From contig JAPLVL010000001.1 in NCBI GenBank assembly GCA_026397135.1, forward strand, positions 12,753 through 76,752: a stretch of DNA of 64,000 nucleotides, written 5' to 3'. The DNA is from Candidatus Berkelbacteria bacterium (GTDB lineage Bacteria > Patescibacteriota > UBA1384 > XYA2-FULL-43-10 > 1-14-0-10-43-13). Below are positions 9,053 to 58,785 of the stretch, piece after piece (position 1 is the stretch's first letter; each line of letters opens with the position of its first letter). Both the position numbers and the translations under genes were made by a program. The notes beneath the pieces were generated by a model. That model had not been told where the DNA came from. It ran no database searches and saw only the letters and a list, made by a program, of their open reading frames with translations.

Positions 9053-9409
9053 ATGGCAAAGAAAGTAGCAAAAAAGGCTCCAGCAAAGGCGCTTGATTTC
9101 AGTCAGGGAGGTAAAATCTCCAAAGTTCTCATTTATTTAATGTTGGCAGTCAATGTTATCACTGTTGCCTATTTTCTGGCTTTCAATCCAGCAGAGACAA
9201 CTGTCAACAACTTCACCAAGTTCCTGTCTCAATTTTCCAGCTACCTCTTCTTGACGATCCTCCTGATCGTGATCGCTGAATATTTCACGAAGCAAATCAA
9301 TGCCAAGCAAATGATGATGAAACTTCTGTCAGTTTTCGGTCTGATCGTTGGCATTATGCTTTCATACGCAATCGCACAAGTCGTCTTGGGTCTTATTGCT
9401 GTTAAATAA
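9053..9409 (+). CDS. Hypothetical membrane protein (Lys-rich N-terminus, 3 TM helices)
   Basis: 118 aa. Strong promoter and RBS upstream. Hydrophobic segments are clear. Confidence 0.5.
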   Translation: MAKKVAKKAPAKALDFSQGGKISKVLIYLMLAVNVITVAYFLAFNPAETTVNNFTKFLSQFSSYLFLTILLIVIAEYFTKQINAKQMMMKLLSVFGLIVGIMLSYAIAQVVLGLIAVK

Positions 9410-9789: not shown

Positions 9790-10257
9790 TTAATATTCGT
9801 AATAGTAGCGCTCTTTGGGCAGTTCCAGTTTGTAAAACTTGAGCAAGCTCAAATTGGCCGGATTGTTAAGAATCGAAGTGAAAAAGTTGAAGACTTTGTC
9901 ATCGTGATTCTTGCCCTCGCAAGTAGCAACACAAGACGCCGGGATCTGACGGCTCTCAAATTCAATCAACTTCTCTCTTTTACCGGCCTCGTCCCCATTC
10001 CAGACTACCAACGCGAAGCTAAAACCAGCACGAGAAGAATGGATAGAGACAGGAAGATAATATTCCTGCACATAAGCAAGGATTCGCTCAAATTCCTGTA
10101 TTGTAAGATTGCGCCGTTCTTCCCAATTCGGCGCAGAGTGAGAAGTCCCGCTAATATTTGTCCGATAATGGATATAGCCTCGCTGCACCCAGATTGCCTC
10201 CTCGAGAGTCCTGAAAAACTCCAGAGCTTCAGTGGACAATGTTACCACCGATTCCAT
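9790..10257 (-). CDS. Hypothetical acidic protein
   Basis: 155 aa. Preferred over the overlapping plus-strand ORF 9769..10284, which starts inside the terminator hairpin and is Arg-rich low-complexity. Confidence 0.45.
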   Translation of the reverse strand: MESVVTLSTEALEFFRTLEEAIWVQRGYIHYRTNISGTSHSAPNWEERRNLTIQEFERILAYVQEYYLPVSIHSSRAGFSFALVVWNGDEAGKREKLIEFESRQIPASCVATCEGKNHDDKVFNFFTSILNNPANLSLLKFYKLELPKERYYYEY

Positions 10258-12617: not shown

Positions 12618-13924
12618 TTTCTCAAATAAAGAACCACCCCACCGGGCCTTTCGTCTTTTGGTGCAACTCTGGATTTTGCTTCTTCGAGGTCAACTGATGG
12701 GTCATCGACAATAATGATGCCGTTTGTCATCCCCTTGCCAATTGTTCTACAGATTCCAGCGTCTTTTACAAAAACGACGCCGCCTTCAACCCACGAAAAG
12801 ACAATATTGTCACCAAATTTTTCAGGGATAGTAAAATTAATAACACCATGGTCAATTCTCAAGCTGTTAATATACGGGCTACTTTCGAAATATGTCACTT
12901 CGCGAACTGTCTCATAAGGATTCACAAAACCAACTTTATCTTTTTCTTCATCATAATATGCGATCGTGGTAGATTCACCGGGGGAAGTTGCTCCTGGTTG
13001 ACGATTACGAATTCTATTTCGCTTTGATTTCAGAAATATTGTTGGCGATAATGTTGGTCTGACTGAGATTTGTTCAAATCCAATATTTTCAATCAAAAAT
13101 GTACCGCCAGCCGTACCAAAACAAATTTCTGTGGTTAATTGGTCCTGCTTCGCCAAAAAATCCTTGACGTAAACCGTACCGCCGGAAGCTTTGGGAGCAA
13201 TCTCACCCCAACGCAATGTATTTATGATAATTGTGCCATTTTGCATTACTTCCCCGATAACACCAACTGCTTCGCCAACCTCCAGTCGTCCACCAAGCAT
13301 CTCTGGGGCAAGTTTTGGCACATTATCAGGCTGATTTTGTTCGAACTTTTCCAGTTTTACATCTCCAGCAAGCATTCTCAAAAAAGCAAACTGTTCTAGA
13401 CGATCAATCATAATATTGCCACCGTTTAAAGACGAACCAAAATTATGACAACGAGGGTCGTTTGAATAATTTGACAGATCATCAAATTTAATCCTGATCG
13501 GCTTCTTGCTTTGCTTGTAAATTGAGAAGAAAAGCCTAATTGCCTCAATTTGAAATGCGTCTGAAATTTCTCCGCTGCTAAACTGACCTTTAAGATATTC
13601 CATCAACCGATCAAAGTCAGACTGCCTAATCGACTTGTCTCTGTGTAATACTGGAACAGAATGCGGATCTACAATAATATCATTAACAGATGCTTTAACA
13701 AACGAACGCTTTGTTTGAGGCATACCGATTGCTGTCAAAAAATCCAGATCCAGCCGCGGGTATTCAGTCAGAAACTCATCGATTAACAATTTAATTTTAT
13801 CAGCAAAACCACGGGTATCTCCTTGCTTTTCACGACTCAAAGACAGAGAGAATTTCCGTTCAAGAGCTACCAAACTATTCATCATTTTTGTAATTTCACC
13901 GCAAATCATCACTTCATCACCCAC
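12563..13924 (-). CDS. GXGXG beta-helix-like repeat protein (GltB-domain-3/FwdC-like segments) with N-terminal M-I-CGEIT motif
   Basis: 453 aa. Segments GGRLEVGEAVGVIGEVMQNGTIIIN...GGTVYVKD and GGVVFVKDAGICRTIGKGMTNGIIIVDD resemble GXGXG repeats. Probable start MICGEIT (~13909). Confidence 0.45.
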   Translation of the reverse strand: MGDEVMICGEITKMMNSLVALERKFSLSLSREKQGDTRGFADKIKLLIDEFLTEYPRLDLDFLTAIGMPQTKRSFVKASVNDIIVDPHSVPVLHRDKSIRQSDFDRLMEYLKGQFSSGEISDAFQIEAIRLFFSIYKQSKKPIRIKFDDLSNYSNDPRCHNFGSSLNGGNIMIDRLEQFAFLRMLAGDVKLEKFEQNQPDNVPKLAPEMLGGRLEVGEAVGVIGEVMQNGTIIINTLRWGEIAPKASGGTVYVKDFLAKQDQLTTEICFGTAGGTFLIENIGFEQISVRPTLSPTIFLKSKRNRIRNRQPGATSPGESTTIAYYDEEKDKVGFVNPYETVREVTYFESSPYINSLRIDHGVINFTIPEKFGDNIVFSWVEGGVVFVKDAGICRTIGKGMTNGIIIVDDPSVDLEEAKSRVAPKDERPGGVVLYLRKWVEGKYFKKKKAEFILL

Positions 13925-13965
13925 TTAATTCTTACTGCTTACTTCTTAATCCTTGCTACTTATTC
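13925..13965. repeat. Heptamer-periodic CTTAAT/CTTACT-type intercistronic repeat
   Basis: ttaattcttactgcttacttcttaatccttgctacttattc, the same family as at 23598, 34238 and 47490. Confidence 0.5.
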
Positions 13966-16515
13966 GTACCCAAATTTCTTGATGAACCAAACCTTGACTA
14001 TTTGAACCAAAAATATATATACAGCGGCCAACCCCAGAATAATCAGGAAAAAGAGTGCTGGTAGCGGCGTGAAGCCAAACCACCTAGCCAAAACAGTGTA
14101 GGGGATAATCGCCCCGACAAAAATAACTGCGATTAATGTATAGAGCAAATATTTGCTCGCTCTGCTCTGGATAAGAGGGATTTTCTTGGTTCGGATAATC
14201 AGGACGACCAGAGTTTGGGTCAAGAGTGACTCAACAAACCAACCAGTGCGAAAGAGTGGAGGCGTGGCGCGAAAGACATACCACATAATACCGAAGGTAG
14301 CAAAATCAAAGAGCGAACTAACTGGGCCGATCGTCCACATAAATTCCTTGATGAAGTTAACATCCCACGGTCGCGGCTTCTGTAAGTCTTCTGCGTCAAC
14401 ATTATCAAGCGGCAGGGCTACCTGGGACAAATCATAGAGAAAATTGTTGAGCAGTACCTGCGGCGGCAACATCGGCAGAAATGGTAGGAGAATACTGGCA
14501 CCAGTCATACTGATCATATTTCCTAAGTTAGAGCTCGCTCCCATTTTGATGTACTTAATCACATTGACAAAGGTCTTCCTGCCCTCGATAACGCAATCAC
14601 ATAGAACTCTGAGATCCTTTTCCAATAGGATAATCGCGGCCGTTTCCTTGGCAATATCCATACCAGTGTTGACCGAAATCCCAACATCAGCCGACTTCAA
14701 GGCTGGTGCATCATTGACTCCATCACCAAGGTAACCGACAACATGACCATTCGACTGGAGCGCTTTGATAATTTTTTCCTTTTGCAAAGGCGTCAGCCTG
14801 ACAAAAACGTTTGCCTTTGCCACCAGCTCTCGCAGGACATGTTCGCTCGCGCTGCTAATCTCATTGCCATTTACGATACCGCTGATCGAAAAATTAACTT
14901 CGTTACAAATTTTCCTGGTCACCATTTCGTTGTCGCCTGAAAGAATCTTGAGAGATACTCCCAAGCCTGCCAAGCTCGTAATAGTATCGCTAACATCAGG
15001 TTTGGGCGGATCGAGGAAGGTTACAAATCCCTGGAAAACCAAATCAGATTCGTCTTCAAATTGAAGCTTGGTTTTGCTACGAATCTTCTTGGTCGCTATT
15101 GCCAAAACACGAAAACCTTCGCGGCTGAGCGATTCATATAGAGATATAATCTTTTCCTTTGATTTCTTGGAAAGAGGTAGAGCGACCTCTTTCAGCGAGA
15201 AATGGCTTGATTTGGCAATTATTTCCTCCGGCGCTCCCTTTGCGACCAAGAGATCCTTGCCAGCACGACGCAACACGACCGACATCATTCGCCTTTCAAA
15301 ATCGTAGGGCAGTTCATCAATTTTCTCGTAATGAGACGTTTCAATTTTTTGATGCTTTAGAATCGCTTGATCCAAAACATTTTTCAAACCGGTTTCAAAA
15401 TGACTATTCAAATATGCATAACGAAAAATCGAGATGTCTTCCCTACCCTTAGCGTCGCAATATTTAATCAGAGCGATACTGTCGAGTGTCAGCGTGCCCG
15501 TCTTGTCGGTACAGAGGATATCCATCGCACCGAAATTTTGGATCGAATCCAGCTTTTTGACAATTATTTTTTTCTTCTCCATCTGCATCGCGCCGCGGGA
15601 GAGATTGACCGTCACAATCATCGGCAACATCTCAGGTGCCAAGCCAACTGCTACCGCCAAGGAAAATAATAACGCATCGACAATGTTACCCTTGAAAATC
15701 GCGTTAAAGAAGAAGATAAATGCTGCCAAGATGATAATCAAACGAATCATCAGCCAGGTGTAGGATTTAATACCTTTTTCGAAGGCCGTCTCAACTCCGA
15801 CTTTGGAAATATCTTCACTCAACATTCCAAACTGAGTTCCCTTGCCGATTGCTAAGACAACTCCGATTCCGGTGCCTCCGACAACACTTGAGCCCATGAA
15901 AATAATATTATCGGAGTCTAAAATATCGTCACTTTTAATTTCGCTTGCCCATGAATCTTTGATCACCGGGAAAGATTCGCCGTTTAGGGACGACTGATTA
16001 AGATACAGACGATTGGCTGAAATCAGCCTAATATCAGCTGGAACCATATCCCCAACCCCAAGCGCGACCAGGTCACCTGGCACCAATTCCTCCAGATTTG
16101 TCGTCCTTTCGTGGCCATCACGAATTACCTTGACTTTGATTTTGACTCTCTCGGCTAGTTTCTGAGCATTTCGGTTGGCTCGATATTCCTGAACAAAAGA
16201 AAGGATCACACTCAAAACAGCCAGAGCAATCACAATAATTGAGTTTATTTGTTCACCGAAATAGAAAGAAACCCCAGCCACCACAAAGAGAGTGATAACT
16301 AGAGGGTTAGCAAACTTAGACAAGAGCTGAACAACTGGCCCATATTTCTGAGCCGCAATTTTGTTGGCACCATAAAAACGCTGGCGGCGGCGGACTTCCC
16401 GCTCCGACAAACCTTTTCTGCCTGTTTTGTATTGCTGCAAAGCTTTCTCCGGAGCAAGACGACTAATTTCAAAAACAAGGCTTTGGGTTACGACCTGATT
16501 TTTCATTCCCTCCAT
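13960..16515 (-). CDS. mgtA: P-type ATPase, MgtA-like (Mg2+-importing) cation transporter
   Basis: 851 aa. Phosphorylation motif CTDKTGTLT, hinge GDGVNDAPAL, and an MgtA-like N-terminal cytoplasmic region. Confidence 0.8.
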   Translation of the reverse strand: MEGMKNQVVTQSLVFEISRLAPEKALQQYKTGRKGLSEREVRRRQRFYGANKIAAQKYGPVVQLLSKFANPLVITLFVVAGVSFYFGEQINSIIVIALAVLSVILSFVQEYRANRNAQKLAERVKIKVKVIRDGHERTTNLEELVPGDLVALGVGDMVPADIRLISANRLYLNQSSLNGESFPVIKDSWASEIKSDDILDSDNIIFMGSSVVGGTGIGVVLAIGKGTQFGMLSEDISKVGVETAFEKGIKSYTWLMIRLIIILAAFIFFFNAIFKGNIVDALLFSLAVAVGLAPEMLPMIVTVNLSRGAMQMEKKKIIVKKLDSIQNFGAMDILCTDKTGTLTLDSIALIKYCDAKGREDISIFRYAYLNSHFETGLKNVLDQAILKHQKIETSHYEKIDELPYDFERRMMSVVLRRAGKDLLVAKGAPEEIIAKSSHFSLKEVALPLSKKSKEKIISLYESLSREGFRVLAIATKKIRSKTKLQFEDESDLVFQGFVTFLDPPKPDVSDTITSLAGLGVSLKILSGDNEMVTRKICNEVNFSISGIVNGNEISSASEHVLRELVAKANVFVRLTPLQKEKIIKALQSNGHVVGYLGDGVNDAPALKSADVGISVNTGMDIAKETAAIILLEKDLRVLCDCVIEGRKTFVNVIKYIKMGASSNLGNMISMTGASILLPFLPMLPPQVLLNNFLYDLSQVALPLDNVDAEDLQKPRPWDVNFIKEFMWTIGPVSSLFDFATFGIMWYVFRATPPLFRTGWFVESLLTQTLVVLIIRTKKIPLIQSRASKYLLYTLIAVIFVGAIIPYTVLARWFGFTPLPALFFLIILGLAAVYIFLVQIVKVWFIKKFGYE

Positions 16516-16528
16516 ATTTTTCTCAAAA

Positions 16529-17521
16529 TTATTTTCCGATGTGCATTGTCAAATCGACAAGTCTCTCTGAATAGCCCCACTCGTTGTCATACCAGGAGAT
16601 TACTTTAACTAAATTGCCTCCGACAACCTGAGTCAGGGATAGGTCGACCATGGCAGAATTTTTCATCGCTGTGAAATCACTTGAGACAAGCTCCTCTTCT
16701 GTGGTTGCCAAAATCCCTTTCAATTCACCCTTCTCTGCACTCTTGAAAGCCTTGTTTATTTCCTCAACAGTCACTTCCTTTTTCAAGACAGCCGTAATGT
16801 CGGAGAGTGAGACTACAGGTGTTGGGACGCGAACAGCCAAGCCGTCAAACATACCTTTCAGGGTTGGAATTGTTTTGTATGCCGCTTTGGCCGCGCCAGT
16901 CGAAGTCGGGACAATATTACAAGCAGCTGCTCTGGCACGACGAAGATCTTTGTGGGGGCCGTCAACCAAATTTTGGTCAGCGGTGTAGGAATGGATGGTC
17001 GTCATCAGAGATTTTTCGATTCCAAATGTGTCTTCCATGACTTTCATCACAGGTGTAATGCAATTAGTAGTACAGGAGGCATTGCTTACGATCTTCTCAT
17101 CTGCATACTTTTCAGAGTTGACTCCCATCACAAAAGTTGGAGTTTCCTCATCTTTGGCTGGGGCTGACATCACTACTTTCTTCGCCCCTGCCTTCAAATG
17201 AGCTTCTGTGTCGGGAATGGTCAGAAATTTTCCTGTACATTCAATAACTACATCAATTCCAAGTTCTCTCCAAGGCAAAGCCGATGGATCTTTCTCCGCA
17301 TAAGAGTGAATACGGCGCTTTTCTATTATCAAATCCCCTTCGTCATGGCCGACTTCATGATCCCAAATGCCATAGCACGTATCGTATTTAAGCAAATGAG
17401 CCAAAGTCGCTACATCCGTCAAATCATTGATCGCAACTAACTCGATCCCTTCACGCTCTGTAATAATTTTGGCCGCCGCTCGGCCAATTCGGCCAAAGCC
17501 GTTGATAGCAATCTTCAACAT
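16529..17521 (-). CDS. gap: Glyceraldehyde-3-phosphate dehydrogenase, type I
   Basis: 330 aa. NGFGRIGR Rossmann motif and catalytic SCTTNC. Confidence 0.9.
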   Translation of the reverse strand: MLKIAINGFGRIGRAAAKIITEREGIELVAINDLTDVATLAHLLKYDTCYGIWDHEVGHDEGDLIIEKRRIHSYAEKDPSALPWRELGIDVVIECTGKFLTIPDTEAHLKAGAKKVVMSAPAKDEETPTFVMGVNSEKYADEKIVSNASCTTNCITPVMKVMEDTFGIEKSLMTTIHSYTADQNLVDGPHKDLRRARAAACNIVPTSTGAAKAAYKTIPTLKGMFDGLAVRVPTPVVSLSDITAVLKKEVTVEEINKAFKSAEKGELKGILATTEEELVSSDFTAMKNSAMVDLSLTQVVGGNLVKVISWYDNEWGYSERLVDLTMHIGK

Positions 17522-17592
17522 TGTAACTCCAATCTTAAATATTAAATATTAAACATTAAAACTTAAATCCATATCTTATTATCTTTTATCTA

Positions 17593-17985
17593 TTATGTTT
17601 TTCCTTTTAGGGTTAATAGACTTTTGGCAATCATTTTACTTATTTGCTCAAGCTCATCCAGTAAATTTTCAACACAAGAAATCTCCAAACCAGACCCTTC
17701 AATTTCATGCAAAATCCAGAGCCAATATTCTGATTCATTAGCACTTTTCAGAGCTATTTCGTAAAACTTAATAAAATCGCGCCTCGACGAAGACGATTTG
17801 GCTTCAATAATATTTGCTCCGATTGAAGTAATGGCACGAACCAACTGATCCGTTATAATCCAGAATATTTTTGACTGTGGCAATTTTTGGCATAATTGAA
17901 TAATCTGTAATGACAAATTGAATGCTCTGAGCTTGACGTTGGATTTCACGTTAAGTTTTTCGTTGTTAAGATATGGGTTTAACAT
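17593..17985 (-). CDS. Four-helix-bundle protein (TIGR02436 / 23S rRNA intervening-sequence protein family)
   Basis: Track ORF 17593..18138 overlaps tpiA. The family is ~120-130 aa, so the start is taken at Met ~17985. Conserved core IGANIIEAKSSSSRRDFIKFYEIALKSANESEYWL. Confidence 0.6.
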   Translation of the reverse strand: MLNPYLNNEKLNVKSNVKLRAFNLSLQIIQLCQKLPQSKIFWIITDQLVRAITSIGANIIEAKSSSSRRDFIKFYEIALKSANESEYWLWILHEIEGSGLEISCVENLLDELEQISKMIAKSLLTLKGKT

Positions 17986-17992
17986 TTGAGAT

Positions 17993-18736
17993 TTAAGATT
18001 TAAAATTCTTAGAATTACTCCAAACTCGACAGATTTCAATAAATTCTGCCGCCCGCACACTTGCTCCGCCGACCAATACACCATCGATTTCAGGACGCTC
18101 TGCGTAGCCTGCAATATTGCTCCCCTTGACACTACCACCGTATAATATCGGCGTCGCAGTATGTAGTAATTCCCGCAGTTTTACCGCCACTTTCGCGACA
18201 TATTCCGGCTCAGCATTTTCGCCAGTCCCAATCGCCCAAATTGGTTCATAGGCGACAATGATATCCTTGAAATATTTCTTCGGTACATGATAGAGCGCCG
18301 CAGCCAATTGACGAGTCGGTTCAGCCGCATTATTTTGACGCTTCCTTTCCCCCACGCAAATAATTGGCGTAATTCCATGTTTCAGAGCAGCCAAAACCTT
18401 TTCGTTTACATCTTGGTCTGATTCGTCAAAATATTGTCTCCTCTCAGAGTGACCGACAATGCAAAATTTGGCCATTTCTGCAACCATCGATGGTGCAATC
18501 TCTCCAGTGAATGCACCTTCCTCTTCGTAAGCCATATTCTGAGCGCCGAGCAAAATTTTCTTGTTGTCGCCCAAAATATTCTTGATCTCAGGAAGCCAAA
18601 GAGCCGGCGGACAGAGAACGACTTCTATCCCGATGACAGGCGCCACTTTGTTCCGAATCGTAGTTGCCAAGATGTGCGCATCTGCGATACTGGTTGCATA
18701 CATTTTCCAATTGCCAACGATAATCGAGCGCTTCAT
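17993..18736 (-). CDS. tpiA: Triosephosphate isomerase
   Basis: 247 aa. AYEPIWAIGTG active-site signature and a GGSV loop. Confidence 0.9.
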   Translation of the reverse strand: MKRSIIVGNWKMYATSIADAHILATTIRNKVAPVIGIEVVLCPPALWLPEIKNILGDNKKILLGAQNMAYEEEGAFTGEIAPSMVAEMAKFCIVGHSERRQYFDESDQDVNEKVLAALKHGITPIICVGERKRQNNAAEPTRQLAAALYHVPKKYFKDIIVAYEPIWAIGTGENAEPEYVAKVAVKLRELLHTATPILYGGSVKGSNIAGYAERPEIDGVLVGGASVRAAEFIEICRVWSNSKNFKS

Positions 18737-18797
18737 ATATCCCTCCAGACCAGTTACAAGCTAAAAGCCAAAAGCTAGAAGCTGATTTATAATATAA

Positions 18798-19823
18798 TCA
18801 TTTTCTCTTGTTTTCATTATACAATTCTATTAGCTCTTTGGCTAGTTTGTTCGAATTGTGAAAAAGAGGATTCACTTCATCAATCACATCTGCCAAAATA
18901 ATCTTGATACCCTCAATCTCAGGTTCAAGAGTCGTAATATTGTTGATCTCGCCAAGCTTAGCTTCATCAGACGAAGTTCGAATAATTTTGCTATTGACCA
19001 AAACATAATCAAATAATTTTCGTCCGCCGTAACTTTTGATCTCTCTAATATGATCATCAATCGTAAAATTTCTTGTCTGGGTTCGCTCTGTCGAACAGTT
19101 GGCAACATAGACCCGCAAAGCTGTTTTGTTTTTCGCGATCGCCTCTCTAATACCATGAATCAAGAGATTGGGCACAAGACTACCGTACAGGCTACCAGGA
19201 CCAAGCACGATCAGGTCAGCAGACAAAATTGCTTCCTCTGCTTTCTTATAAGCCTTAACTTTGGGTTTATTTAGACTTATTCGCTTAATCTTCTTCAGTT
19301 CCTTGTCCAAATGGGATTCCCCCCGACAAATCGTATTGTCAGCATATTCGATCACAAGATCGATATTGGCCAAAGTCGAGGGCAAGACGCGACCAGCTGT
19401 CTGAAAAATTTCACTCGTGACCTCGATCGCTCGTTCGAAAGAACCGAGGTAATCAGTCAATCCAGTAATCCAAATATTGCCGAGAGTGTGGCCACCAAAT
19501 GTTTTCTTCTTTGCATCGAAACGATGTTCAAATATTTTGGCGATCAAGTCTTCATCGTAAGCCAGAGCCGAAATACATTTTCGAATATCCCCTGGAGCAA
19601 CCATATCAAAATCCTGACGAATTTCTCCAGTCGAGCCACCCGCATCAGCCACCGTCACTATCGCCGAAATATCACTCGAGTATGCCTTGAGTCCACGCAA
19701 AAGATTGGCCAGCCCAGTGCCGCCGCCAATGACAGCGATCTTGACTACGCCTCCCGCATTGAACCGTGGATCTGTCGGTGCGTAGCGCAACCATTTCCAC
19801 CAAGTTTTGATAATATTTGACAT
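18798..19823 (-). CDS. YvcK/UPF0052 family (CofD-like, gluconeogenesis factor) protein
   Basis: 341 aa. VKIAVIGGGTGLANLLRGLK...VTVADAGGSTG is typical of the family. Confidence 0.8.
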   Translation of the reverse strand: MSNIIKTWWKWLRYAPTDPRFNAGGVVKIAVIGGGTGLANLLRGLKAYSSDISAIVTVADAGGSTGEIRQDFDMVAPGDIRKCISALAYDEDLIAKIFEHRFDAKKKTFGGHTLGNIWITGLTDYLGSFERAIEVTSEIFQTAGRVLPSTLANIDLVIEYADNTICRGESHLDKELKKIKRISLNKPKVKAYKKAEEAILSADLIVLGPGSLYGSLVPNLLIHGIREAIAKNKTALRVYVANCSTERTQTRNFTIDDHIREIKSYGGRKLFDYVLVNSKIIRTSSDEAKLGEINNITTLEPEIEGIKIILADVIDEVNPLFHNSNKLAKELIELYNENKRK

Positions 19824-19913
19824 GAATTAAATCTATCATTTGCACTCAAATAGTTCAATCACACAAGAGATAATATTATAAACAAAATAAACAAAAACTC
19901 ACAAATATTCATT

Positions 19914-19955
19914 GCGTCGTGAAAAATGGGACGATCGTCCCATTTTTCACGACGC
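19914..19955. terminator. 42-nt perfect palindrome (19-21-bp arms) downstream of uvrC: terminator-like hairpin or operator
   Basis: gcgtcgtgaaaaatgggacgatcgtcccatttttcacgacgc. On the minus strand it follows the uvrC stop by ~40 nt and precedes a T-rich stretch and a TATAAT upstream of yvcK. Confidence 0.5.
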
Positions 19956-20008
19956 AACCTTAGAACAATATGAGACTGGAAAATATAACTGTGATTAAAA
20001 GATGGAAA

Positions 20009-21406
20009 TTAATTTTCAATCATCCCCTCGCGATGCAGTTTGCGGTAGAACGAAATTGCAAATCTATGCGCTTCATCCCGAGTCGCAATACAGACATTTT
20101 GAAGAGAGATATTGCCGGCAAAATATTTGGCGACTTCAGAATTGGCAAAATGAAAGTCGTTCTTCTGTCTCTTGGGTCCTTTGGAGATAGAGACAAGCGG
20201 TATTTGTAACTCAAAATCACTCAAAACTTCCTTTGCCACCCGCAATTGCATCTCTCCTCCATCAATTACAATTAAATCTGGTTTTGGCCAATCATTCCGA
20301 AACCTCCGCTCCAGAACCTGCTTCAACCGAAACAGATCATTATTGTCATTTCGACCCGTCTGCACGGCAGGCAGGCTCGACGAAGTCGGTGGAGAAATCT
20401 GGAGTGAAGTGTCATCCTGATCTTGTCGAAGGATCTCATCCTTTGCGGAAAATCTATCAACCCCAGGAACATCGCTCGAGATGACAGAATTATTAATTTT
20501 GAACTTTCTGTACTCATCAGAGGCTTTTCTTCCGTCAACAAATACGACCATTGAGCCAACAACATATTCATCCCCAATATTAGCAATGTCGTAGCACTCA
20601 ATCCGTTTGAATAATATTTTATTACTATCAAAAACGTCATCGCGAAGTCCGATCACTACTTCAGAGATATGTTGCAGGGCATACAATTTATTACGAACAA
20701 TGGCCGCTTCTTCAAATTTCTCTTTTTTTGAAAAACGTGTCATTTCCTTCTCGAGATCGCGAATTATCTCCTGCTTTTTACCACGCAAGAACGCTTTCAA
20801 ATATTTAATATTTTTATTGTAATTTTCCGCACTAATACTACCAACACAAGGTGCCGTACAAATTTTTATATCTCCATAAATGCACGATCGACCCTTTTTG
20901 GCGGCTGAACTATATTTCGTCTTTGTACAATCACGAAAAGGAAAAATTTTGCGAAGATATCGTATCGATTTCTTAAGCAACAATCCTGCAGGGTAAGGTC
21001 CGAAATAGTCAGCCGACTTGTCCGAAAAATCAACATTCTTAACCCGAACCAGCTCAAGGACGGGAAATGCTGTTTTTGTAATTTTCTTGGCTATCTTAAT
21101 AACCAAGAAGGATTTATCGTCCTTTAGTCTCACGTTGTACTTCGGCTTCAATTTGTTGATCAGCTCAGCCTCAAGCAAAACCGCTTCAATCTCTGACCCA
21201 GTTTCGATATATTTAATATCAAAAGCCTTTTCTACCATTTGCTCAATCGCTGGTCCACGGCCCAACTCTTTCAGGAAATATTGCTTCAGGCGATTCTGCA
21301 AGTTTTTCGCTTTACCCACATACAAAATCCCTCCCTTTTCATCAAGGAAGCGATAAACACCCGGCTTTTTGGGCAAATCTTTAATTTTGTCTTTTGAATT
21401 TATCAT
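20009..21406 (-). CDS. uvrC: Excinuclease ABC subunit C (UvrC), apparently lacking the C-terminal (HhH)2 domain
   Basis: N-terminal GIY-YIG (KPGVYRFLDEKGGILYVGKAKNLQNRLKQYF) and a C-terminal RNase H-like region ending RDEAHRFAISFYRKL. Track ORF runs to 21505; likely start MINSKDK (~21406). The protein stops ~12 aa after AHRFAI. Confidence 0.8.
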   Translation of the reverse strand: MINSKDKIKDLPKKPGVYRFLDEKGGILYVGKAKNLQNRLKQYFLKELGRGPAIEQMVEKAFDIKYIETGSEIEAVLLEAELINKLKPKYNVRLKDDKSFLVIKIAKKITKTAFPVLELVRVKNVDFSDKSADYFGPYPAGLLLKKSIRYLRKIFPFRDCTKTKYSSAAKKGRSCIYGDIKICTAPCVGSISAENYNKNIKYLKAFLRGKKQEIIRDLEKEMTRFSKKEKFEEAAIVRNKLYALQHISEVVIGLRDDVFDSNKILFKRIECYDIANIGDEYVVGSMVVFVDGRKASDEYRKFKINNSVISSDVPGVDRFSAKDEILRQDQDDTSLQISPPTSSSLPAVQTGRNDNNDLFRLKQVLERRFRNDWPKPDLIVIDGGEMQLRVAKEVLSDFELQIPLVSISKGPKRQKNDFHFANSEVAKYFAGNISLQNVCIATRDEAHRFAISFYRKLHREGMIEN

Positions 21407-21546
21407 TATCAAATATTTCTCCACCCTCCTTGAGGAGTCGAAATGACAACAAAAGGAAGTTTGCGAATTTCCGCTCATTATATGAGTTTTCATCAAAATA
21501 TTCAAGCTATAGGCACGGAAACAGAAATTGCTTGAACAATATAGAG

Positions 21547-22455
21547 CTAGTTTACAAGTCCGCGCAAAAGCTCTGCTTGGTCAGTTGTTACGACACTACC
21601 ATCAGAATTTCGATAGCTTACAGCGACTCGATCGTGTTCCGTCCCAAGAGATTTCTTGGCGATCTTCTCGAGCTCCCCGGCATTATTTATTTTCTCTTGG
21701 AGATAGCTTGCAAACTTTTCCGGCTCGTTGATCGGATCCGGATGAGTCGGAGAGCACGGCTCCACTCCAACAACGTAGGTGATTGGGACTTCCTCAGTCT
21801 CACCTGCAATATTTACCCCTGTAATTGGTGCATCCAAAAGAATTTTGTATATTCTCCTCGCGATAATCTGACCGGCCAACGCCGGATTTGCCTTCGGCAA
21901 GAAGATCACAAATTCATCACCATTATTTGAACGCCTAGCCGGAATATCATAGACCCGAAGCTCCTTTGAAAGCATTGCGAAGCGTTCAATAATCCGGTCA
22001 GTTTCATCGTAGCCAAATTGATCGTTCAAACCTTTCATTCCGTTTAGATCAATAAACACAAAGCATCCGTTCATAGTTGAGCGAAGTTTGTTCTCTGTCT
22101 TTTGATATTCGCCAGAAGCAAAATATTTTTTGATTTCTTCGGTAAACCCAAGCATATTTAGAAGCTCGGTCTTCGGCTCGTGGGTCAGTTGGTAATGCAG
22201 AAATTCATTTTCTTTAACCAAACTAAGCACATTTAAATGAAGTTTTTCGGCCGTTTCCCTAATCTTATACACAAACTTTGTAATTTTTTCAGGTGGCAAA
22301 TTAAGCTCGGCCGCAAAGGAAATAAGCTCCTGCAAATTTTGATACACGAAATCAGCTCTATTTTCAGAGTTTGACTCCGGCTTTGTTTCTACCGGTTTTT
22401 CACCCACCAATGTTTCAGGCTTGATGCCAGTATCAACTGGCTCTCCTTGCTGCAC
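21547..22455 (-). CDS. GGDEF-domain protein with degenerate NGDEF active-site motif
   Basis: 302 aa. FVFIDLNGMKGLNDQFGYDETDRII...RRSNNGDEFVIFL matches the GGDEF fold, with NGDEF in place of GG[DE]EF. Confidence 0.6.
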   Translation of the reverse strand: MQQGEPVDTGIKPETLVGEKPVETKPESNSENRADFVYQNLQELISFAAELNLPPEKITKFVYKIRETAEKLHLNVLSLVKENEFLHYQLTHEPKTELLNMLGFTEEIKKYFASGEYQKTENKLRSTMNGCFVFIDLNGMKGLNDQFGYDETDRIIERFAMLSKELRVYDIPARRSNNGDEFVIFLPKANPALAGQIIARRIYKILLDAPITGVNIAGETEEVPITYVVGVEPCSPTHPDPINEPEKFASYLQEKINNAGELEKIAKKSLGTEHDRVAVSYRNSDGSVVTTDQAELLRGLVN

Positions 22456-22471
22456 CGCCCCTCCAATCTCA

Positions 22472-23572
22472 CTATTTCACGATCAAATGAATAATATCTT
22501 TGTAAGTAATCGCCAAAATCAACAATATAAGTATAGCAAATCCAACCAAATGAACAATGTTTTCAACATTTTCTTTCAGTACCCGTTTCTTGGTAATTTT
22601 TTCGATAATCGTAAGGAGAGCACGACTTCCATCAAGGGAAGGGAAGGGCAGAGAATTAACTAGACCCAGATTGATCGACAAAATTGCGATAAACTGTAAG
22701 AAAGCAATAATTCCCGCTCGAGCTGCTACTCCGCTAAGATTGAAAATTGCGACTGGACCGCCAACTTGATCCGAAACATGACCAGTAGAGAAAAGCTCCT
22801 TGACGAAACTACCCAGAAAATCAAAGGTAATTTTCAGAATCTCGTAGGACTCACGCAAACTAACAATCGGTGCCTTGTACCAAGGGACTCGAACGATTGA
22901 CTGATTCGTAATCGACACCCCGAGTGGAGCGCTCTTATCCTCTGAAATAGTAACTGTTTTCTCTAGCGTTTGATTGTCCCGTTTTAATTCAATAATTATT
23001 GAATTACCCAAATGTGCAGTTGTAAAATTGCTAACATCGGCCAGCGACTTCGGCCGAACAGCCTGATCCTGATATTTAAGCTCAATAATTTGATCACCGG
23101 CTTCGAGCCCACCCTTAGCAGCAGGAGAATCAGCCAATGTTTCCACTATGAATACTTGTGCCTTAACCACTTTTCCCGGAATCATCTCCGACGGGGTCGC
23201 AATCGGTGTCATGCCGACAGTGAAGCCAATTGTGATCAAAATCCAAGCCAACAGAAAATTCATCACTACACCGGCAATCGAGATGAAAAAACGACGGAGA
23301 GGAGATTGATTGTTGTAAGCTCTGGGATCTTTCGACTCTTCTTCTTCACCCAACATTTGGACATACCCACCAAAAAGCAAAAGGCCAATTGAATATTTGG
23401 TTTCTTTTCTCTTGAAGGTATAGATTCTGGGTGGAAATCCAATCGAAAATTCCAGCACTTTGACCCCTGCAGTTTTGGCTGCCAGAAAGTGACCCAACTC
23501 ATGAACAAGCACCAGGAGACCGAGACAAACAATAAAGGCAACAATTGTTAGTAACATTTGTATTTTTTCCAA
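22472..23572 (-). CDS. rseP: Site-2 protease RseP-family (M50 zinc metalloprotease with PDZ domain)
   Basis: 366 aa. HELGHFLAAK HExxH in the first TM region, a PDZ segment, and LDGS near the C-terminus. Confidence 0.85.
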   Translation of the reverse strand: MEKIQMLLTIVAFIVCLGLLVLVHELGHFLAAKTAGVKVLEFSIGFPPRIYTFKRKETKYSIGLLLFGGYVQMLGEEEESKDPRAYNNQSPLRRFFISIAGVVMNFLLAWILITIGFTVGMTPIATPSEMIPGKVVKAQVFIVETLADSPAAKGGLEAGDQIIELKYQDQAVRPKSLADVSNFTTAHLGNSIIIELKRDNQTLEKTVTISEDKSAPLGVSITNQSIVRVPWYKAPIVSLRESYEILKITFDFLGSFVKELFSTGHVSDQVGGPVAIFNLSGVAARAGIIAFLQFIAILSINLGLVNSLPFPSLDGSRALLTIIEKITKKRVLKENVENIVHLVGFAILILLILAITYKDIIHLIVK

Positions 23573-23597
23573 TAATTAGAGAGACCCATGACCACAC

Positions 23598-23660
23598 ATT
23601 CTTAATTCTTACTGCTTAATTCTGAATTCTTAATCCTGACTCCTGACTCCTGAAATAATT
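23598..23660. repeat. Heptamer-periodic intercistronic repeat (cttaattcttactgcttaattctgaattcttaatcctgactcctgactcctga)
   Basis: Between the frr end and the rseP start. The minus-strand sense reads TCAGGAGTCAGGAGTCAGGATTAAGAATTCAGAATTAAGCAGTAAGAATTAAGAA, i.e. SD-like AGGAG/AGGAT plus TAA stops. Confidence 0.55.
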
Positions 23661-24231
23661 AAATCTTCATCACATCTTGTTCTTTTTCGGCAATCAAAAG
23701 GTCAACTTCACTATTAAATTCAGTGACCTGCTTGTTTAGTTCTTCTTCAGCCCAACGACGATCATCTTCAGTTGCCTGACCAGCCTTTTCGGCCGCCTGA
23801 ACTTTGTCCCAAGCTTCTCTGCGAACATTCCGAAGCGAAACTTTTGTCTCTTCGCCCAACTTCTTGACTGTTGTAGCGATTTCTCTACGCCTCTCCTCTG
23901 TCATCGGTGGCAAAATCAGTCGAATCTGCTGACCATCATTTATAGGAGAGATGCCCAAATTTGAATTTCTGATCGCAGTCTCAATATCATTTAGTGAGCT
24001 TCTGTCCCATGGCTTGACCACAATTTGATTCGGCTCCGGCACGGTTATCGACGCTAGTTCCTTGATGCTTGTCTTGGCACCATAATAAATCGCCGTTACC
24101 CCATCAAGAATACTTGGATTTGCTCGTCCGGTCCTAATTCGGCTCAATTCGAGTTTGAAGTTTTCAATCGCCGCTTTCATCTTTGGCTTAATCTCTTTCA
24201 GAATCGTGTCAATCATATTTTCCTTCCCCAA
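23659..24231 (-). CDS. frr: Ribosome recycling factor
   Basis: 190 aa, RRF family throughout (…RTGRANPSILD…VPEPNQIVVKPWD…). Confidence 0.9.
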   Translation of the reverse strand: MGKENMIDTILKEIKPKMKAAIENFKLELSRIRTGRANPSILDGVTAIYYGAKTSIKELASITVPEPNQIVVKPWDRSSLNDIETAIRNSNLGISPINDGQQIRLILPPMTEERRREIATTVKKLGEETKVSLRNVRREAWDKVQAAEKAGQATEDDRRWAEEELNKQVTEFNSEVDLLIAEKEQDVMKI

Positions 24232-24324
24232 AACTAGCCTTAGATTTGTAAGGTTTGTCTTGGTTTTAGTTATTAAAGATTCAGAGAGAGCAAATTAAAT
24301 TCTCTCTCACGAAAATTATAGCAG

Positions 24325-24921
24325 TTAGGCACCAATTTGGAAACGGCAGAATCTGCTGATAATAATTTTTTCACCAATTTTGGTAGTGAGATCATTTAGA
24401 AGATCTTCAATCTTCTTGTCCTGATCCTTTACAAAAGGCTGGTAAAGCAGACAATTTTCTTCATAAAATTTGTTCAATCTGCCCTCTACAATTTTTTCTG
24501 CAATTTCAGCTGATTTTCCAGAAGCTTTGACTTCTTCGAGCAAGAATGTCTTTTCCTTTTCAACTTCTGAGGCAGGGACATCTTCTTTGCTAATATATTT
24601 GGGAGCCATAGCAGCAACATGGAGTGCTACATCATGAGCAAATTGTTTGAATTCATCATTTTTGGCAACAAAATCAGTTTCGGCCAAAACTTCGACCATC
24701 ACTCCAATTTTACCATTTGAATGAATATATGATTCAATCAAACCGGCTTTTGTTTCTCTCTCTGCTCTCTTGGCAGCCTTGGTAGCACCGCGTTTTCTCA
24801 TTATTTCAATCGCATTCTCTTCGTTTCCACCAGCTTCTTCGAGCGCCTTCTTGCACTCCATCATACCGATGCCGGTTTTGGCACGCAGTGCAGCGATTTC
24901 TTTGGCTGTAATAGTCATCAT
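24325..24921 (-). CDS. tsf: Elongation factor Ts
   Basis: 198 aa. N-terminal UBA-like TAKEIAALRAKTGIGMMECKKALEEAGGN. Confidence 0.9.
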   Translation of the reverse strand: MMTITAKEIAALRAKTGIGMMECKKALEEAGGNEENAIEIMRKRGATKAAKRAERETKAGLIESYIHSNGKIGVMVEVLAETDFVAKNDEFKQFAHDVALHVAAMAPKYISKEDVPASEVEKEKTFLLEEVKASGKSAEIAEKIVEGRLNKFYEENCLLYQPFVKDQDKKIEDLLNDLTTKIGEKIIISRFCRFQIGA

Positions 24922-25012
24922 GCTCCTTTGTTATTGATGAACGGCCAACATCCTGTAGAGATAATATTATCCTTGAACACAGTTGCTGGCTAGTTCTTCG
25001 TCCATTTGTAGT

Positions 25013-34227: not shown

Positions 34228-34237
34228 TTTTCCACCA

Positions 34238-34310
34238 GAATTAAGAATTAAGAATTAAGAATTAAGTAACATTTTACTTACTGCTTAATCCTTACTGCTT
34301 ACTACTGAAT
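34238..34310. repeat. Heptamer-periodic intercistronic repeat (attaagaattaagaattaagaattaag…cttactgcttaatccttactgcttact)
   Basis: Between the gatA end and the ppiB start; same family as at 23598 and 47490. Confidence 0.55.
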
Positions 34311-45234: not shown

Positions 45235-45323
45235 TTAATATTTACCACTCAACTTGTTTGCCCTGCCCAAGTTCAAGGCGAGGCGAGCTTGCTCACCTGC
45301 TCACTTGCTTACCTGTAAACTAT

Positions 45324-47489: not shown

Positions 47490-47555
47490 ATTACTAGCCG
47501 CCTACTTGCTTAATGCTTAATACTGAATCCTTAATCCTGAACCCTTAATCCTTAT
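47490..47555. repeat. Heptamer-periodic intercistronic repeat (cttaatgcttaatactgaatccttaatcctgaacccttaatcctta)
   Basis: Between ftsE and ftsX. Confidence 0.55.
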
Positions 47556-50092: not shown

Positions 50093-52912
50093 TTATTTTC
50101 CACAGCATTTCTTGTATTTCTTGCCGCTTCCACATGGACAAGGATCATTGCGGCCCGGTTTGGCCACGTGTTTCACCTGTGAAGCAGGGCCAGTCGCCGC
50201 CGATTCTTTCATCCGATCGAAGACAGTCTTCTTTTGCGACAACATTACGCTTTCGCTATCAGCCCTGTTTGTATTAGATTCAGCCATCATCTTCTGTGCC
50301 ATTGCTAAATCTTCTTTTTCTTTGTCAAATCCGCCAACTTTATCAACCACTGGTTCAGAATAAAGAAGAGGTTTTGATTCTTCAGAAACTGGCTTCGGTG
50401 CCTGATTGTTTATCTTTATTTCAATTTTGAAGATTGTGCGGGCAACCATAGCTTCAATATTCTGTAAAAGCGCCTCAAAAAGTCGGTACGCTTCCTGTTT
50501 GTACTCAACCAATGGATCACGCTGACCGTAACCCTGCAAGCCAATTCCGGTACGCAATTCATCCATCGTTGTCAGGTGTTCAATCCAGAGCATATCGATT
50601 GTCCGAAGATAAACCATCTTTTCAACCTCTCTGGTGACATTTGATCCGTACTTTTGCTCTCGATCATCATAAATTTTTCTTACAAATTGTTTCAATTCGA
50701 CAATATCAAGTGAAGGCAGGATAATCTCGCCGAAAATCGCTTTGAGTTCCATTCTCAATTTATCCTGATCTTCGATATAGAGATTGCAGATTTTTTCAAT
50801 TTCCTCTTCCAATATCTCCAAAATCTCATCCTTCAGCGAAAACTCTTCTTCCTCACTCCTGACTTCTGACTCCTGACTTCTGGCTTCTGAGTCTTGGCTT
50901 CTGGCTTCTGAGTCCTGACTTCTGACTTCCGACTTCCCGTCCTCCTCTTGTCGAATGGATTTGCTTTCAGATTCTAATACTCGACGGCGTTTTCGGTAAA
51001 TAACCTCACGGTGCTTATTCATCACATCATCATACTCAACCAGATGTTTGCGGATATCAAAATTGTATCCTTCAACCCTCTTCTGTGCCGATTCAATCGA
51101 GTTGGAGATCATCCGATTTTCAATCGGCATCTCATCGGGCAGACCCAGAGAGTTCATAATATTCTTTAGCCGATCACCACCAAAAATCCGCATCAAATCG
51201 TCATCCATCGAAACAAAAAACTGAGATGAGCCGGCGTCACCTTGGCGACCAGAACGACCGCGCAACTGATTATCAATACGACGCGCTTCGTGTCGCTCAG
51301 TTCCAAGCACATGCAGACCACCCAATTCCCGCACCCCTTCACCAAGTTTAATATCAGTACCACGACCAGCCATATTAGTCGCTACCGTGACAGCACCAAC
51401 CAAACCGGCCTTGGAGATTATTTTTGCTTCGCGTTCATGATTCTTCGCGTTCAATACCTCATGTTTTATCCCAGCTCTCTTCAGAGCTTTTGACAGAATT
51501 TCATTCTTGGACACAGAAACAGTACCAATCAAAATCGGTTGGCCCTTGTCGTGGCGTATTCGAACATCTTCGGTAATAGCAGTAATTTTCGCTTCCTCAG
51601 TTTTGTAGATCCGATCGGGAACATCAAGCCGAGCAACCGGTTTGTTTGTTGGAATTTCAACAACATCAAGCTTATAAATTTTGAAAAATTCCTCCGCTTC
51701 GGTCGCGGCAGTACCGGTCATACCTGACAATTTCTTATACATCCGGAAAAGATTTTGGAACGAAATCGTGGCCAAGGTTTGTGACTCATTTTTGACTTCA
51801 ACATTTTCCTTCGCCTCAATCGCTTGGTGCAGACCTTCAGAATACCGGCGGCCAACCATCAACCGTCCTGTAAACTCATCTACAATCATTATTTCGCCGT
51901 CCTGGACTACATAATCTCGATCTTTCTGGAAAAGAGCATGCGCCTTAAGTGCCTGTTCTAGATGGTGAACCATCGTAATACCACCAACTTCGTAAATATT
52001 GTCGATATGGAGCATTTTCTCCATCTCGTGAATTCCTTTATCGGTCAGTGTGACAGTCTTTTCCTTCTCGTCAATAACATAATCATCTGTTTCAGTAAGC
52101 CGAGGAACCAAGGCGGCAAATTGTTGATACATCCCGCCCGATTCTTCAGCCGGAGCTGAAATAATAAGCGGCGTCCTGGCTTCGTCAATCAATATCGAGT
52201 CCACCTCATCAACAATTGCAAAATATAGCTCCCGCTGGACGCAAAGTTCTAGATTTGGCGCCATATTATCGCGCAAATAGTCGAACCCAAATTCGTTGTT
52301 TGTACCATAAGTAATGTCAGCATGATATGCATCGCGCCGACTACATGGTTCCAGGTTCAATCCCTCACACTCCGAATAGTGTTTGTAATCATGGCTTTTT
52401 TTGAAACGATAAGTCTCTTGATTGCTCTGAATGATACCAGTCGAAAGTCCCAAAAAGTCAAAAACTTGTCCCATTCCCTCGCCCTGATGTTTCGAGAGAT
52501 AATCATTTACCGTTACCAAGTGAGCGCCGCGACCGGCTAATGAATTTAAATATAGAGGGAGTGTCGCTACGATTGTCTTACCTTCACCAGTTTTCATCTC
52601 GGCGATTTTGCCTTGGTGAAGCACGAGGCCACCAATTATTTGTACGTCAAAATGGCGCTCTCCCCAGACACGCTTCATCGCTTCTCGCAATACAGCAAAG
52701 GCCTCAGGCGCGATCTGCTCAAGTATCTCGTCTTCGGAAATCTCTGATTCTCTGTCTTTGATTCGATTCCGAAACTCAGTCGTCTTCTGTTTCAACTCCT
52801 CGCCAGAGAGATTACTGACCTCCTTTTCGAAATCACTGATTTCCCTAACCTGACGCTCCAAAGCGCCAATCACTCTTTTGCTCGGATTGTAAAATTTATC
52901 AATTAAACCCAT
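50093..52912 (-). CDS. secA: Preprotein translocase ATPase SecA, with an in-frame heptad-repeat insertion
   Basis: DEAD-like motor motifs and C-terminal zinc finger CPCGSGKKYKKCCG. Likely start MGLIDKFYNPS (~52912; track ORF extends to 52978). Insertion EVRSQDSEARSQDSEARSQESEVRSEEEE. Confidence 0.9.
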   Translation of the reverse strand: MGLIDKFYNPSKRVIGALERQVREISDFEKEVSNLSGEELKQKTTEFRNRIKDRESEISEDEILEQIAPEAFAVLREAMKRVWGERHFDVQIIGGLVLHQGKIAEMKTGEGKTIVATLPLYLNSLAGRGAHLVTVNDYLSKHQGEGMGQVFDFLGLSTGIIQSNQETYRFKKSHDYKHYSECEGLNLEPCSRRDAYHADITYGTNNEFGFDYLRDNMAPNLELCVQRELYFAIVDEVDSILIDEARTPLIISAPAEESGGMYQQFAALVPRLTETDDYVIDEKEKTVTLTDKGIHEMEKMLHIDNIYEVGGITMVHHLEQALKAHALFQKDRDYVVQDGEIMIVDEFTGRLMVGRRYSEGLHQAIEAKENVEVKNESQTLATISFQNLFRMYKKLSGMTGTAATEAEEFFKIYKLDVVEIPTNKPVARLDVPDRIYKTEEAKITAITEDVRIRHDKGQPILIGTVSVSKNEILSKALKRAGIKHEVLNAKNHEREAKIISKAGLVGAVTVATNMAGRGTDIKLGEGVRELGGLHVLGTERHEARRIDNQLRGRSGRQGDAGSSQFFVSMDDDLMRIFGGDRLKNIMNSLGLPDEMPIENRMISNSIESAQKRVEGYNFDIRKHLVEYDDVMNKHREVIYRKRRRVLESESKSIRQEEDGKSEVRSQDSEARSQDSEARSQESEVRSEEEEFSLKDEILEILEEEIEKICNLYIEDQDKLRMELKAIFGEIILPSLDIVELKQFVRKIYDDREQKYGSNVTREVEKMVYLRTIDMLWIEHLTTMDELRTGIGLQGYGQRDPLVEYKQEAYRLFEALLQNIEAMVARTIFKIEIKINNQAPKPVSEESKPLLYSEPVVDKVGGFDKEKEDLAMAQKMMAESNTNRADSESVMLSQKKTVFDRMKESAATGPASQVKHVAKPGRNDPCPCGSGKKYKKCCGK
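50845..50935. repeat. 7-nt-periodic tandem repeat inside the secA coding sequence (ctgacttctgactcctgacttctggcttctgagtc…)
   Basis: Read directly: ~13 heptamer units, in frame (21 nt = 7 aa). Same heptamer family as the intercistronic repeats, e.g. ctgactcctgactcctga at 23640. Confidence 0.6.
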
Positions 52913-58738: not shown

Positions 58739-58785
58739 TTTAAAAGCTGACTTGCTCACCTGCTTACCTGCATACTTGCAACTAT

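Follow-up and report, generated by a model that had tools for sequence, protein, structure and literature searches.

The window, as the whole 64-kb stretch of DNA analysed here is called, comes from a metagenome-assembled genome of Candidatus Berkelbacteria (Patescibacteria, or candidate phyla radiation), has a G+C content of about 42% and carries most of its genes on the minus strand. Several of its intergenic spacers contain tandem arrays of 7-nt units, which an earlier note had described as one family of intercistronic repeats that has also expanded in frame inside secA. Pfam confirmed the P-type ATPase, GAPDH (gap), TIM (tpiA), CofD, cyclophilin (ppiB), amidase (gatA-like), FtsX and FtsE. 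Hence, the gene names of the earlier note were backed by domain matches for the ATPase, cyclophilin, amidase, FtsX and FtsE, while RseP is named after a precomputed M50 annotation, and frr solely after synteny with genes annotated as ribosome recycling factor (RRF) in relatives. Four intergenic spacers together hold five arrays of the family, a sixth is located in secA, and in the mRNA sense the units follow the consensus T-[A/C]-A-G-N-A-[G/T] (TMAGNAK):

13928..13962, minus strand: array between the P-type ATPase gene and a 453-aa gene; 5 units (TAAGTAG, CAAGGAT, TAAGAAG, TAAGCAG, TAAGAAT)
23598..23653, minus strand: array between frr and rseP; 8 units (TCAGGAG, TCAGGAG, TCAGGAT, TAAGAAT, TCAGAAT, TAAGCAG, TAAGAAT, TAAGAAT)
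34274..34308, minus strand: forward arm between gatA and ppiB; 5 units
34237..34266, plus strand: reverse arm between gatA and ppiB, in inverted orientation; AATTAAG x 4.3, perfect
47506..47554, minus strand: array between ftsE and ftsX; 7 units, the first of which is TAAGGAT
50849..50932, minus strand: in-frame array of secA; 12 heptamers, 84 nt = 4 x 21 nt

For the ATPase gene (TAA, 13960-13962), gatA (TAG, 34302-34304) and ftsE (TAA, 47552-47554), the first unit of the array includes the stop codon of that upstream gene. The array between frr and rseP starts 5 nt past the frr stop codon (23659-23661), and 40 nt separate its end from the rseP ATG (23557). The TAAG units put stop codons in all three frames, in agreement with the proposal of the earlier note that the units supply stops. 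The gatA–ppiB spacer, which the earlier note had listed with the other spacers, is built from the heptamer family but as an inverted pair. The arms of this pair form an A/U-rich hairpin without a U tract (-22.6 kcal/mol, z = -5.5), whose end lies at the Shine-Dalgarno sequence GGTGG of ppiB. The reverse arm is the only perfect array, and all others are imperfect mixtures of variant units. The frr–rseP spacer was identical base for base in an independent Logan assembly (SRR20698641), and therefore the array is not an assembly artefact.

The heptamer family

The periodicity of the window was compared with block-wise dinucleotide shuffles. Tandem Repeats Finder gave 11 rows of period 7 versus 1.7 in the shuffles (shuffle maximum 6), 4 rows of period 14 versus 0.3, and 4 rows of period 21 versus 0.03. 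In a uniform lag scan of periods 4 to 12, the arrays of period 7 (7 arrays, 273 nt) were accompanied by a single array of period 8 and by none of any other period. The three-unit pattern TMAGNNNTMAGNNNTMAG was matched 20 times in the window, while 0.05 matches were expected, and all matches were located within 13924-13948, 23601-23653, 34242-34266 (plus strand), 34277-34308, 47509-47554, and 50859-50925 of secA. Additionally, two of the arrays share an exact 18-nt match. These data confirm that the array-bearing spacers share one heptamer family. On the other hand, the heptamer periodicity that had been ascribed to the short spacers was strong in 6 of the 43 spacers that are 28 nt or longer (lag-7 z 4.4 or more), and the other 37 lacked it. 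Because the arrays fill a minority of spacers, the pooled intergenic autocorrelation showed modest peaks at lags 7, 14, and 21.

Among the 31 intergenic units T1, A3, G4, and A6 were near-invariant, position 2 was A or C, position 7 was T or G, and position 5 was occupied by all four bases. G at position 5 was found in 9 of these units, and about a third of units hold AGGAG/AGGAT-type cores. Heptamers of other sequence were found at the following places:

17522..17592, minus strand: spacer between the 116-aa-type gene and gap; TAGATAA AAGATAA TAAGATA ... AATATTT AATATTT AAGATTG, lag-7 z = 4.6, made up of such units throughout and reaching from the stop codon as far as TGGAG, the Shine-Dalgarno sequence of gap
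17978-18007: further heptamer units at the tpiA stop codon
18758..18783, minus strand: spacer between cofD and tpiA; TNAGCTT x 3.7, reaching up to the tpiA Shine-Dalgarno sequence GGAGGG, z = 4.4

The small open reading frame (ORF) at 17593-17962 (minus strand), in the interval between tpiA and gap, had been fused with an overlapping longer frame in the greedy ORF list. It is a 115/116-aa gene without a Pfam match, which is kept in position in L088 and L089, two of the relatives described below.

Intercistronic junctions and their signals

The junctions of the window were compared with those of related genomes, the nearest of which have SecA proteins at most 74% identical to that of the window. 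The relatives were L088 and L084 (rseP 69%, secA 74% identical), L089 (rseP 64%) and L083 (rseP 59%), the last being the useful one of three loci returned by a metagenome scan with RseP. The spacer lengths were as follows:

frr–rseP: window 101 nt, with an array; L088 72 nt, L089 10 nt, L083 9 nt
cofD–tpiA: window 61 nt, with an array; relatives 47 nt
tpiA–116-aa gene: window 30 nt; relatives 18-25 nt
116-aa gene–gap: window 71 nt, with arrays; relatives 17-27 nt
gap–ATPase gene: window 13 nt; relatives 2 nt

No array was found at any of these junctions in the syntenic relatives, and L088 was without a period-7 array across 21 kb. The fact that the junctions of relatives are short and array-free indicates that the arrays are recent, lineage-specific expansions of junctions that function elsewhere without them. 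We think it rather probable that the arrays are lineage-specific heptanucleotide simple-sequence repeats, similar to the short tandemly repeated repetitive (STRR) sequences and long simple sequence repeats (LSSRs) of other bacteria, which have expanded between stop codon and ribosome-binding site, where there is no signal, and in one tolerant loop of a protein. According to this explanation, one degenerate 7-bp family would expand where a compact operon junction carries no signal, so that formerly tight junctions lengthen to 35-101 nt. We infer that this expansion was a product of replication slippage, that there was some exchange among arrays, and that the arrays are nearly neutral. The seeds were probably native junction sequences of the AATTAAGGAGG type, which would give the units their resemblance to a stop codon followed by a Shine-Dalgarno sequence, and filtering probably keeps the arrays start-codon-free and little structured, so that coupling survives. 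The inspected arrays were indeed composed of units without a start codon. As nearly all genes of the window are on one strand, effects of transcription and replication strand are inseparable there.

Two sets of observations weigh against an origin by near-neutral slippage. Firstly, the 31 intergenic units vary mainly at positions 2, 5, and 7, and units differ nearly as much within arrays as between arrays (1.71 versus 1.92 differences). Simple independent decay of pure arrays would not yield such variation, which points to selection acting on the unit, to common descent, or to exchange among arrays. Adjacent units were only marginally more similar than in shuffled order (permutation p = 0.07), and this marginal result neither proves nor excludes recent slippage. 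Secondly, the spacer between ftsE and ftsX is 69-198 nt long and bears repeats right after the ftsE stop codon in all four Berkelbacteria examined. These repeats are clear short-period tandems in three genomes and a weak AT-rich signal in L084, and their units are wholly different:

window, 47483-47551: TAAGGAT-type units, 69 nt
L084, 16081-16278: AATTTAA/GAATTTA, 198 nt, weak
L087, 15074-15207: AAATCTC x 3, 134 nt
L001, 21349-21530: period-8/16 repeat AAGTGCATAAAGCTAA, 179 nt

The persistence of repeats at this junction hints at selection for some array there. The junction of ftsE and ftsX is tighter in more distant bacteria (L020). L001, the closest relative in the genome collection, also has some 17.6 heptamers (GTAGAAC/GGGGAAC/GTGGAAC) in an intergenic array of 135 nt at 9065-9199, and inverted arrays of the AACTTAA/TTAAGTT type upstream of secA at 9870-9990.

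The arrays could also be functional intercistronic RNA elements, a refined form of the idea of the earlier note, in which an unstructured, stop-rich array free of start codons, its units partly complementary to the 3′ tail of 16S rRNA, would retain terminating ribosomes or serve as a standby or landing site and thereby keep the downstream cistron coupled or tuned over a long spacer. The shared TMAGNAK pattern of position-specific conservation in five arrays, the near-equal divergence within and between arrays, and the repeat-bearing ftsE–ftsX spacer kept in four genomes are all consistent with such a role, and similar roles (transcript stability, translational coupling) have been suggested both for the STRRs of the hupS–hupL spacer (PMC2670836) and for the TAACTGA heptamers (PMC4679880). 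The placement of the arrays is suggestive as well, because they start at the stop codon and most extend from it, or from close to it, toward the next ribosome-binding site, which follows directly in three of them. The sites that follow repeats are GGTGG (ppiB), TGGAG (gap), GGAGGG (tpiA), and GGTGA (before the probable ATG of the 453-aa gene). Additionally, direct arrays fold no better than their shuffles, being if anything less structured (z about +0.9), and their units resemble a stop codon fused to a Shine-Dalgarno sequence (TAAGGAG). The Shine-Dalgarno sites of this organism are canonical, with TAAGGAGG or GGAGGG at -8 to -13 and the core (TA)AGGAGG, and the units are similar to the extended form TAAGGAGG; the window has no 16S rRNA of this genome for comparison.

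However, the same gene pairs are tight and array-free in close relatives, arrays are present in just 6 of the 43 spacers, and the repeat units at the ftsE–ftsX junction of relatives, AAATCTC and AATTTAA, are not Shine-Dalgarno-like. A GGA-type core is found in only about a third of the units. The Shine-Dalgarno-like cores described in the earlier note are present, but the next start codon comes 29-94 nt downstream of them, and the arrays were rejected as Shine-Dalgarno sites of the downstream genes, for which a position of about 5-13 nt is expected. The start codons of ppiB, gap, tpiA and probably the 453-aa gene are preceded at 9-13 nt by their own GGAG/GGTG-type site, while no such site was found ahead of the rseP or ftsX start. 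In the whole window about 26 of 72 ORF starts have a GGAG/AGGA/GGTG site at -6 to -18, several of them downstream of arrays. An RNA element of this kind is therefore unlikely. The proposal of a genome-wide translational insulator and re-initiation cassette is not borne out by the spacing of the cores, the downstream genes' own Shine-Dalgarno sites, the 37 spacers that lack the heptamer period, and the array-free relatives. A mini-ORF of 13 codons (MGLSNYWKKYKCY) was found at 23548-23589 on the minus strand, starting 3 nt past a GTGTGG that directly follows the frr–rseP array, and its TAA overlaps codons 2-3 of rseP. It could re-establish translational coupling after the array was inserted, or it could be a chance occurrence.

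Octamer arrays bear on the same question:

45290..45315, minus strand: octamer array CAGGTAAG CAAGTGAG CAGGTGAG, 8 nt past the stop codon of a 416-aa gene
58745..58779, minus strand: second octamer array, in the convergent spacer between the stop codon of a 430-aa gene and a canonical hairpin terminator

The earlier note had counted these two as related copies, but their unit CAGGTRAG has period 8 and forms a family separate from the heptamers. The array at 58745-58779 lies in a convergent 3′ untranslated region (UTR) before a terminator and has no downstream cistron, and therefore it cannot be an intercistronic device, which is a further point against a functional RNA element. Both octamer copies are preceded by ATAGTT and begin 6-8 nt past a stop codon. 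The terminator beyond the second array, AAAAAATGCCCGTCTCGGGCATTTTTT at ~58700-58730, is bidirectional.

A related explanation, which we hold to be somewhat less likely still, is that the arrays of Berkelbacteria are selected intercistronic spacers with fast turnover, unstructured, stop-rich, without start codons and partly complementary to the anti-Shine-Dalgarno sequence, which would hold terminating ribosomes and set the coupling ratio at particular junctions. It draws on two observations, the repeats that the ftsE–ftsX junction keeps in all four genomes despite the complete replacement of their units, and the TMAGNAK constraint that five arrays share.

A shade less probable again is a binding array, in DNA or RNA, for an OB-fold protein (S1, cold-shock) or for a CsrA-like protein recognizing A(N)GGA, which would act on a small regulon. 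The four near-invariant positions around a fully degenerate position 5 do look motif-like, and the same vocabulary of units is used at five loci, including the exact 18-nt match. The CAGGA(N)G-like units recall the repeats of CsrB. Proteins of these same kinds have also been put forward for TAACTGA repeats (PMC4679880). On the other hand, the flanking genes (ATPase, frr/rseP, gatA/ppiB, ftsEX) are functionally unrelated, the arrays are absent in relatives, and ascertainment by periodicity favors conserved positions by itself.

The least likely explanation, in our view a very improbable one, is that the arrays are phase-variable contingency loci, in which changes of the 7-bp copy number switch or tune expression. 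Heptameric simple sequence repeats (SSRs) can act in this way, as was proven experimentally for (ATCTTTC)n upstream of hmw1A in Haemophilus influenzae, where the repeat in the 5′ UTR is located in a hairpin processed by RNase III (PMC12721329), and the long hairpin between gatA and ppiB adjoins the ppiB ribosome-binding site. However, all arrays except 34237-34266 are imperfect, which implies low slippage rates, their neighbors are housekeeping genes, a change by one unit in secA would frameshift an essential gene, and the two assemblies of the organism agree exactly in the frr–rseP spacer. A scan of 12000-25000 for sigma-70-like promoter and intrinsic terminator consensus sequences found none at the arrays at 13925 and 23598, which leaves no promoter consensus over these two arrays. 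An intrinsic terminator, defined as a G+C-rich hairpin with a U tract, was likewise absent at these two arrays and at the gatA–ppiB hairpin, and no Rfam family matched the whole window at the gathering threshold. As regards an origin from a mobile element similar to miniature inverted-repeat transposable elements, the arrays have no common terminal sequences beyond a GTGG-type motif after three of them, and this motif is the downstream Shine-Dalgarno sequence of ppiB and probably of the 453-aa gene.

Two other repeats of the window are the following:

8863-8904, plus strand: perfect direct repeat, 21 nt x 2 (GTGGGCAAGTACGCAAGTGGG), 2 nt past the stop codon of a 416-aa plus-strand gene; it holds GCAAGTG, which is octamer-family-like and has the same orientation relative to its mRNA
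19911-19958, minus strand: hairpin with a perfect 20-bp stem, GTTGCGTCGTGAAAAATGGGAC GATC GTCCCATTTTTCACGACGCAA, in the 185-nt spacer upstream of cofD; the stem is far longer than that of a usual terminator

The in-frame array of secA

The array inside secA has the form (TCRGAAG YCAGAAG YCARGAS) x 4, that is, four blocks of 21 nt with three units each, and it encodes SEVRSQD SEARSQD SEARSQE SEVRSEE. It is in frame and belongs to the same family, as the earlier note had stated, while the number of copies is 12 rather than about 13. Only stop-free variants of the unit are used. The array has a higher-order periodicity of 21 nt, as expected if only frame-preserving insertions and deletions survive. 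In the alignment to Bacillus subtilis SecA the array is located just past the long helix and at the onset of the domain that we take to be, respectively, the scaffold helix and the wing domain of SecA structures, and not simply between the motor domains and the zinc finger, where it had been placed before. In the AlphaFold model of the window SecA residues 600-658 form a helix, residues 658-688 have a predicted local distance difference test (pLDDT) score below 50 and no regular structure, and helices are formed again from residue 693. The C-terminal linker region of this protein (836-916) is likewise predicted to be disordered.

The comparison of 120 Berkelbacteria SecAs showed that the linker at this site varies from 2 to 47 residues, with a median of 11, and that the linker of the window SecA has the cleanest 7-residue periodicity among them. 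Other lineages have inserts of the QNPKSEIRNP type at the same site, in which KSEIRNP is the exact translation of three AAATCCG units. The insert in L087 secA is encoded by AAATCCC/AAATCAC units, which belong to the same family as the AAATCTC units of the L087 ftsE–ftsX spacer, and in L001 the site is occupied by a CAACAAC array. As the insert is absent or different in homologues, it is neither ancient nor conserved, and the suggestion that it is lineage-specific and length-variable was correct. The site is a hotspot, filled in each genome with repeats of its own. The process that we favor for the spacers would also have placed the 12 stop-free units, which add up to a multiple of 21 nt, in a surface loop of SecA that tolerates changes in length, and the result is a disordered insert rich in acidic residues and serine.

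The window insert is similar to the disordered regions derived from tandem repeats in Borgs (PMC9879509), as it is an in-frame nucleotide repeat, is absent from homologues, and is of low complexity and predicted to be disordered. It differs from them in that the 7-nt unit needs triplets (21 nt) to stay in frame. It is also an isolated case within a housekeeping gene of a bacterium, while in Borgs, which are extrachromosomal elements, such regions are pervasive. A second heptamer array (AAATCCGAAATCCGAAA) was found in L087 secA at 12559-12575, in the C-terminal linker before the zinc-finger tail. The SecA linkers of P0021, P0027, P0028, P0035, P0040, P0047, P0016, and P0076 have inserts of the DPSTSLGMT / RSFATAQDD / PFGFAQGE types, which look like a translated G+C-rich dispersed repeat, and similar DNA is present in the window at 60110-60135 and 60290-60335 (AAGCTCAGGATGACAAA; GTCATTGCGAGCC...GGCGCGGCAATC). 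Hence, a second class of repeats seems to colonize the SecA loop as well.

Known heptamer repeats and meaning of the arrays

The generality of period-7 arrays was analyzed in 80 secA loci of diverse bacteria (L001-L080; 1.41 Mb), which contained 65 arrays of period 7 versus at most 17 for any other period from 4 to 12. Many of these arrays are inverted pairs (L074 15547/15597, L058 1526/1576, L038 8291/8338, L070 8113/8152), and units with TCAG or TAAG turn up again in unrelated phyla (L026, L070, L074). Among 34 co-directional intergenic arrays from about 90 loci there was no consistent purine bias of the sense strand (19 versus 13) and no consistent proximity to the stop versus the start codon (20 versus 14), which argues for an origin at the DNA level. 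This is consistent with the work of Mrazek (2007), which, as it is summarized in PMC4679880 and PMC4692102, found heptameric SSRs to be over-represented in many prokaryotes, possibly through contacts between DNA polymerase and template. In the same summaries (Mrazek et al. 2007 via PMC4679880, PMC4692102) LSSRs are defined by units of 5-11 nt, with heptamers as the most abundant class.

The window arrays share several properties of LSSRs: their units are arranged head to tail beyond compositional expectation, they are mainly non-coding with a frame-preserving coding copy, and they turn over rapidly among relatives. They also share with LSSRs and with the Xanthomonas GGGNATC repeats, which sit between the same genes of related species and vary in length and sequence (PMC4692102), the heptamer-specific excess, the intergenic location, the inverted pairs, and a degenerate position in a fixed unit. 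The Xanthomonas and Nostoc units are G-rich and quadruplex-forming, while those of the window are A/G-rich in the mRNA sense, contain stop codons and cannot form a G-quadruplex. Cyanobacterial STRRs are 7-bp repeats that sometimes form intercistronic hairpins, as between hupS and hupL of Nostoc/Anabaena, and were proposed to act in transcript stability or translational coupling (PMC2670836). The window arrays resemble them in the tandem 7-bp units, in the use of one family at many intergenic and intercistronic sites, and in the hairpin-forming inverted pairs (PMC2670836; PMC4692102). The Berkelbacteria arrays are from another phylum, however, have 5-8 units of the T[A/C]AGNA[G/T] type, and include one in-frame copy in an essential gene. 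The STRR units are reportedly CCCCAGT, TTGGTCA, and CAACAGT. Hence, the window arrays work like STRRs but are not members of them, as they are not cyanobacterial and their units differ.

The TAACTGA repeats, which precede start codons in Beggiatoaceae, are similar in that they are heptamers with two stop codons, occur in many short intergenic sets in marine Beggiatoaceae, cyanobacteria, and Bacteroidetes, and have a proposed post-transcriptional or translational role (PMC4679880). The reverse complement of TAACTGA, TCAGTTA, fits TMAGNNN, and the plus-strand unit TTACTGC of the window matches TAACTGA at 5 of 7 positions. In contrast, the window arrays adjoin the upstream stop codon, have, relative to the mRNA, the opposite orientation to the TAACTGA repeats, and several of the downstream genes have their own Shine-Dalgarno sequence. 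Membership in the TAACTGA network was rejected, since the nearest unit matches at only 5 of 7 positions and the arrays are placed at the stop codon and do not replace the ribosome-binding site before the start codon.

The finding is descriptive as it stands. With it, the unexplained bacterial excess of tandem 7-bp repeats is seen to include Patescibacteria, whose genomes are reduced. The arrays of this organism are a clean natural example of two consequences: junctions that relatives keep tight become longer, with a probable loosening of translational coupling, and an essential protein, SecA, gains a new disordered insert through the same repeat process at a site that many related lineages filled independently. 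If selection is behind the persistence of repeats between ftsE and ftsX, the arrays would make it possible to study how intercistronic spacing is tuned in unculturable organisms.

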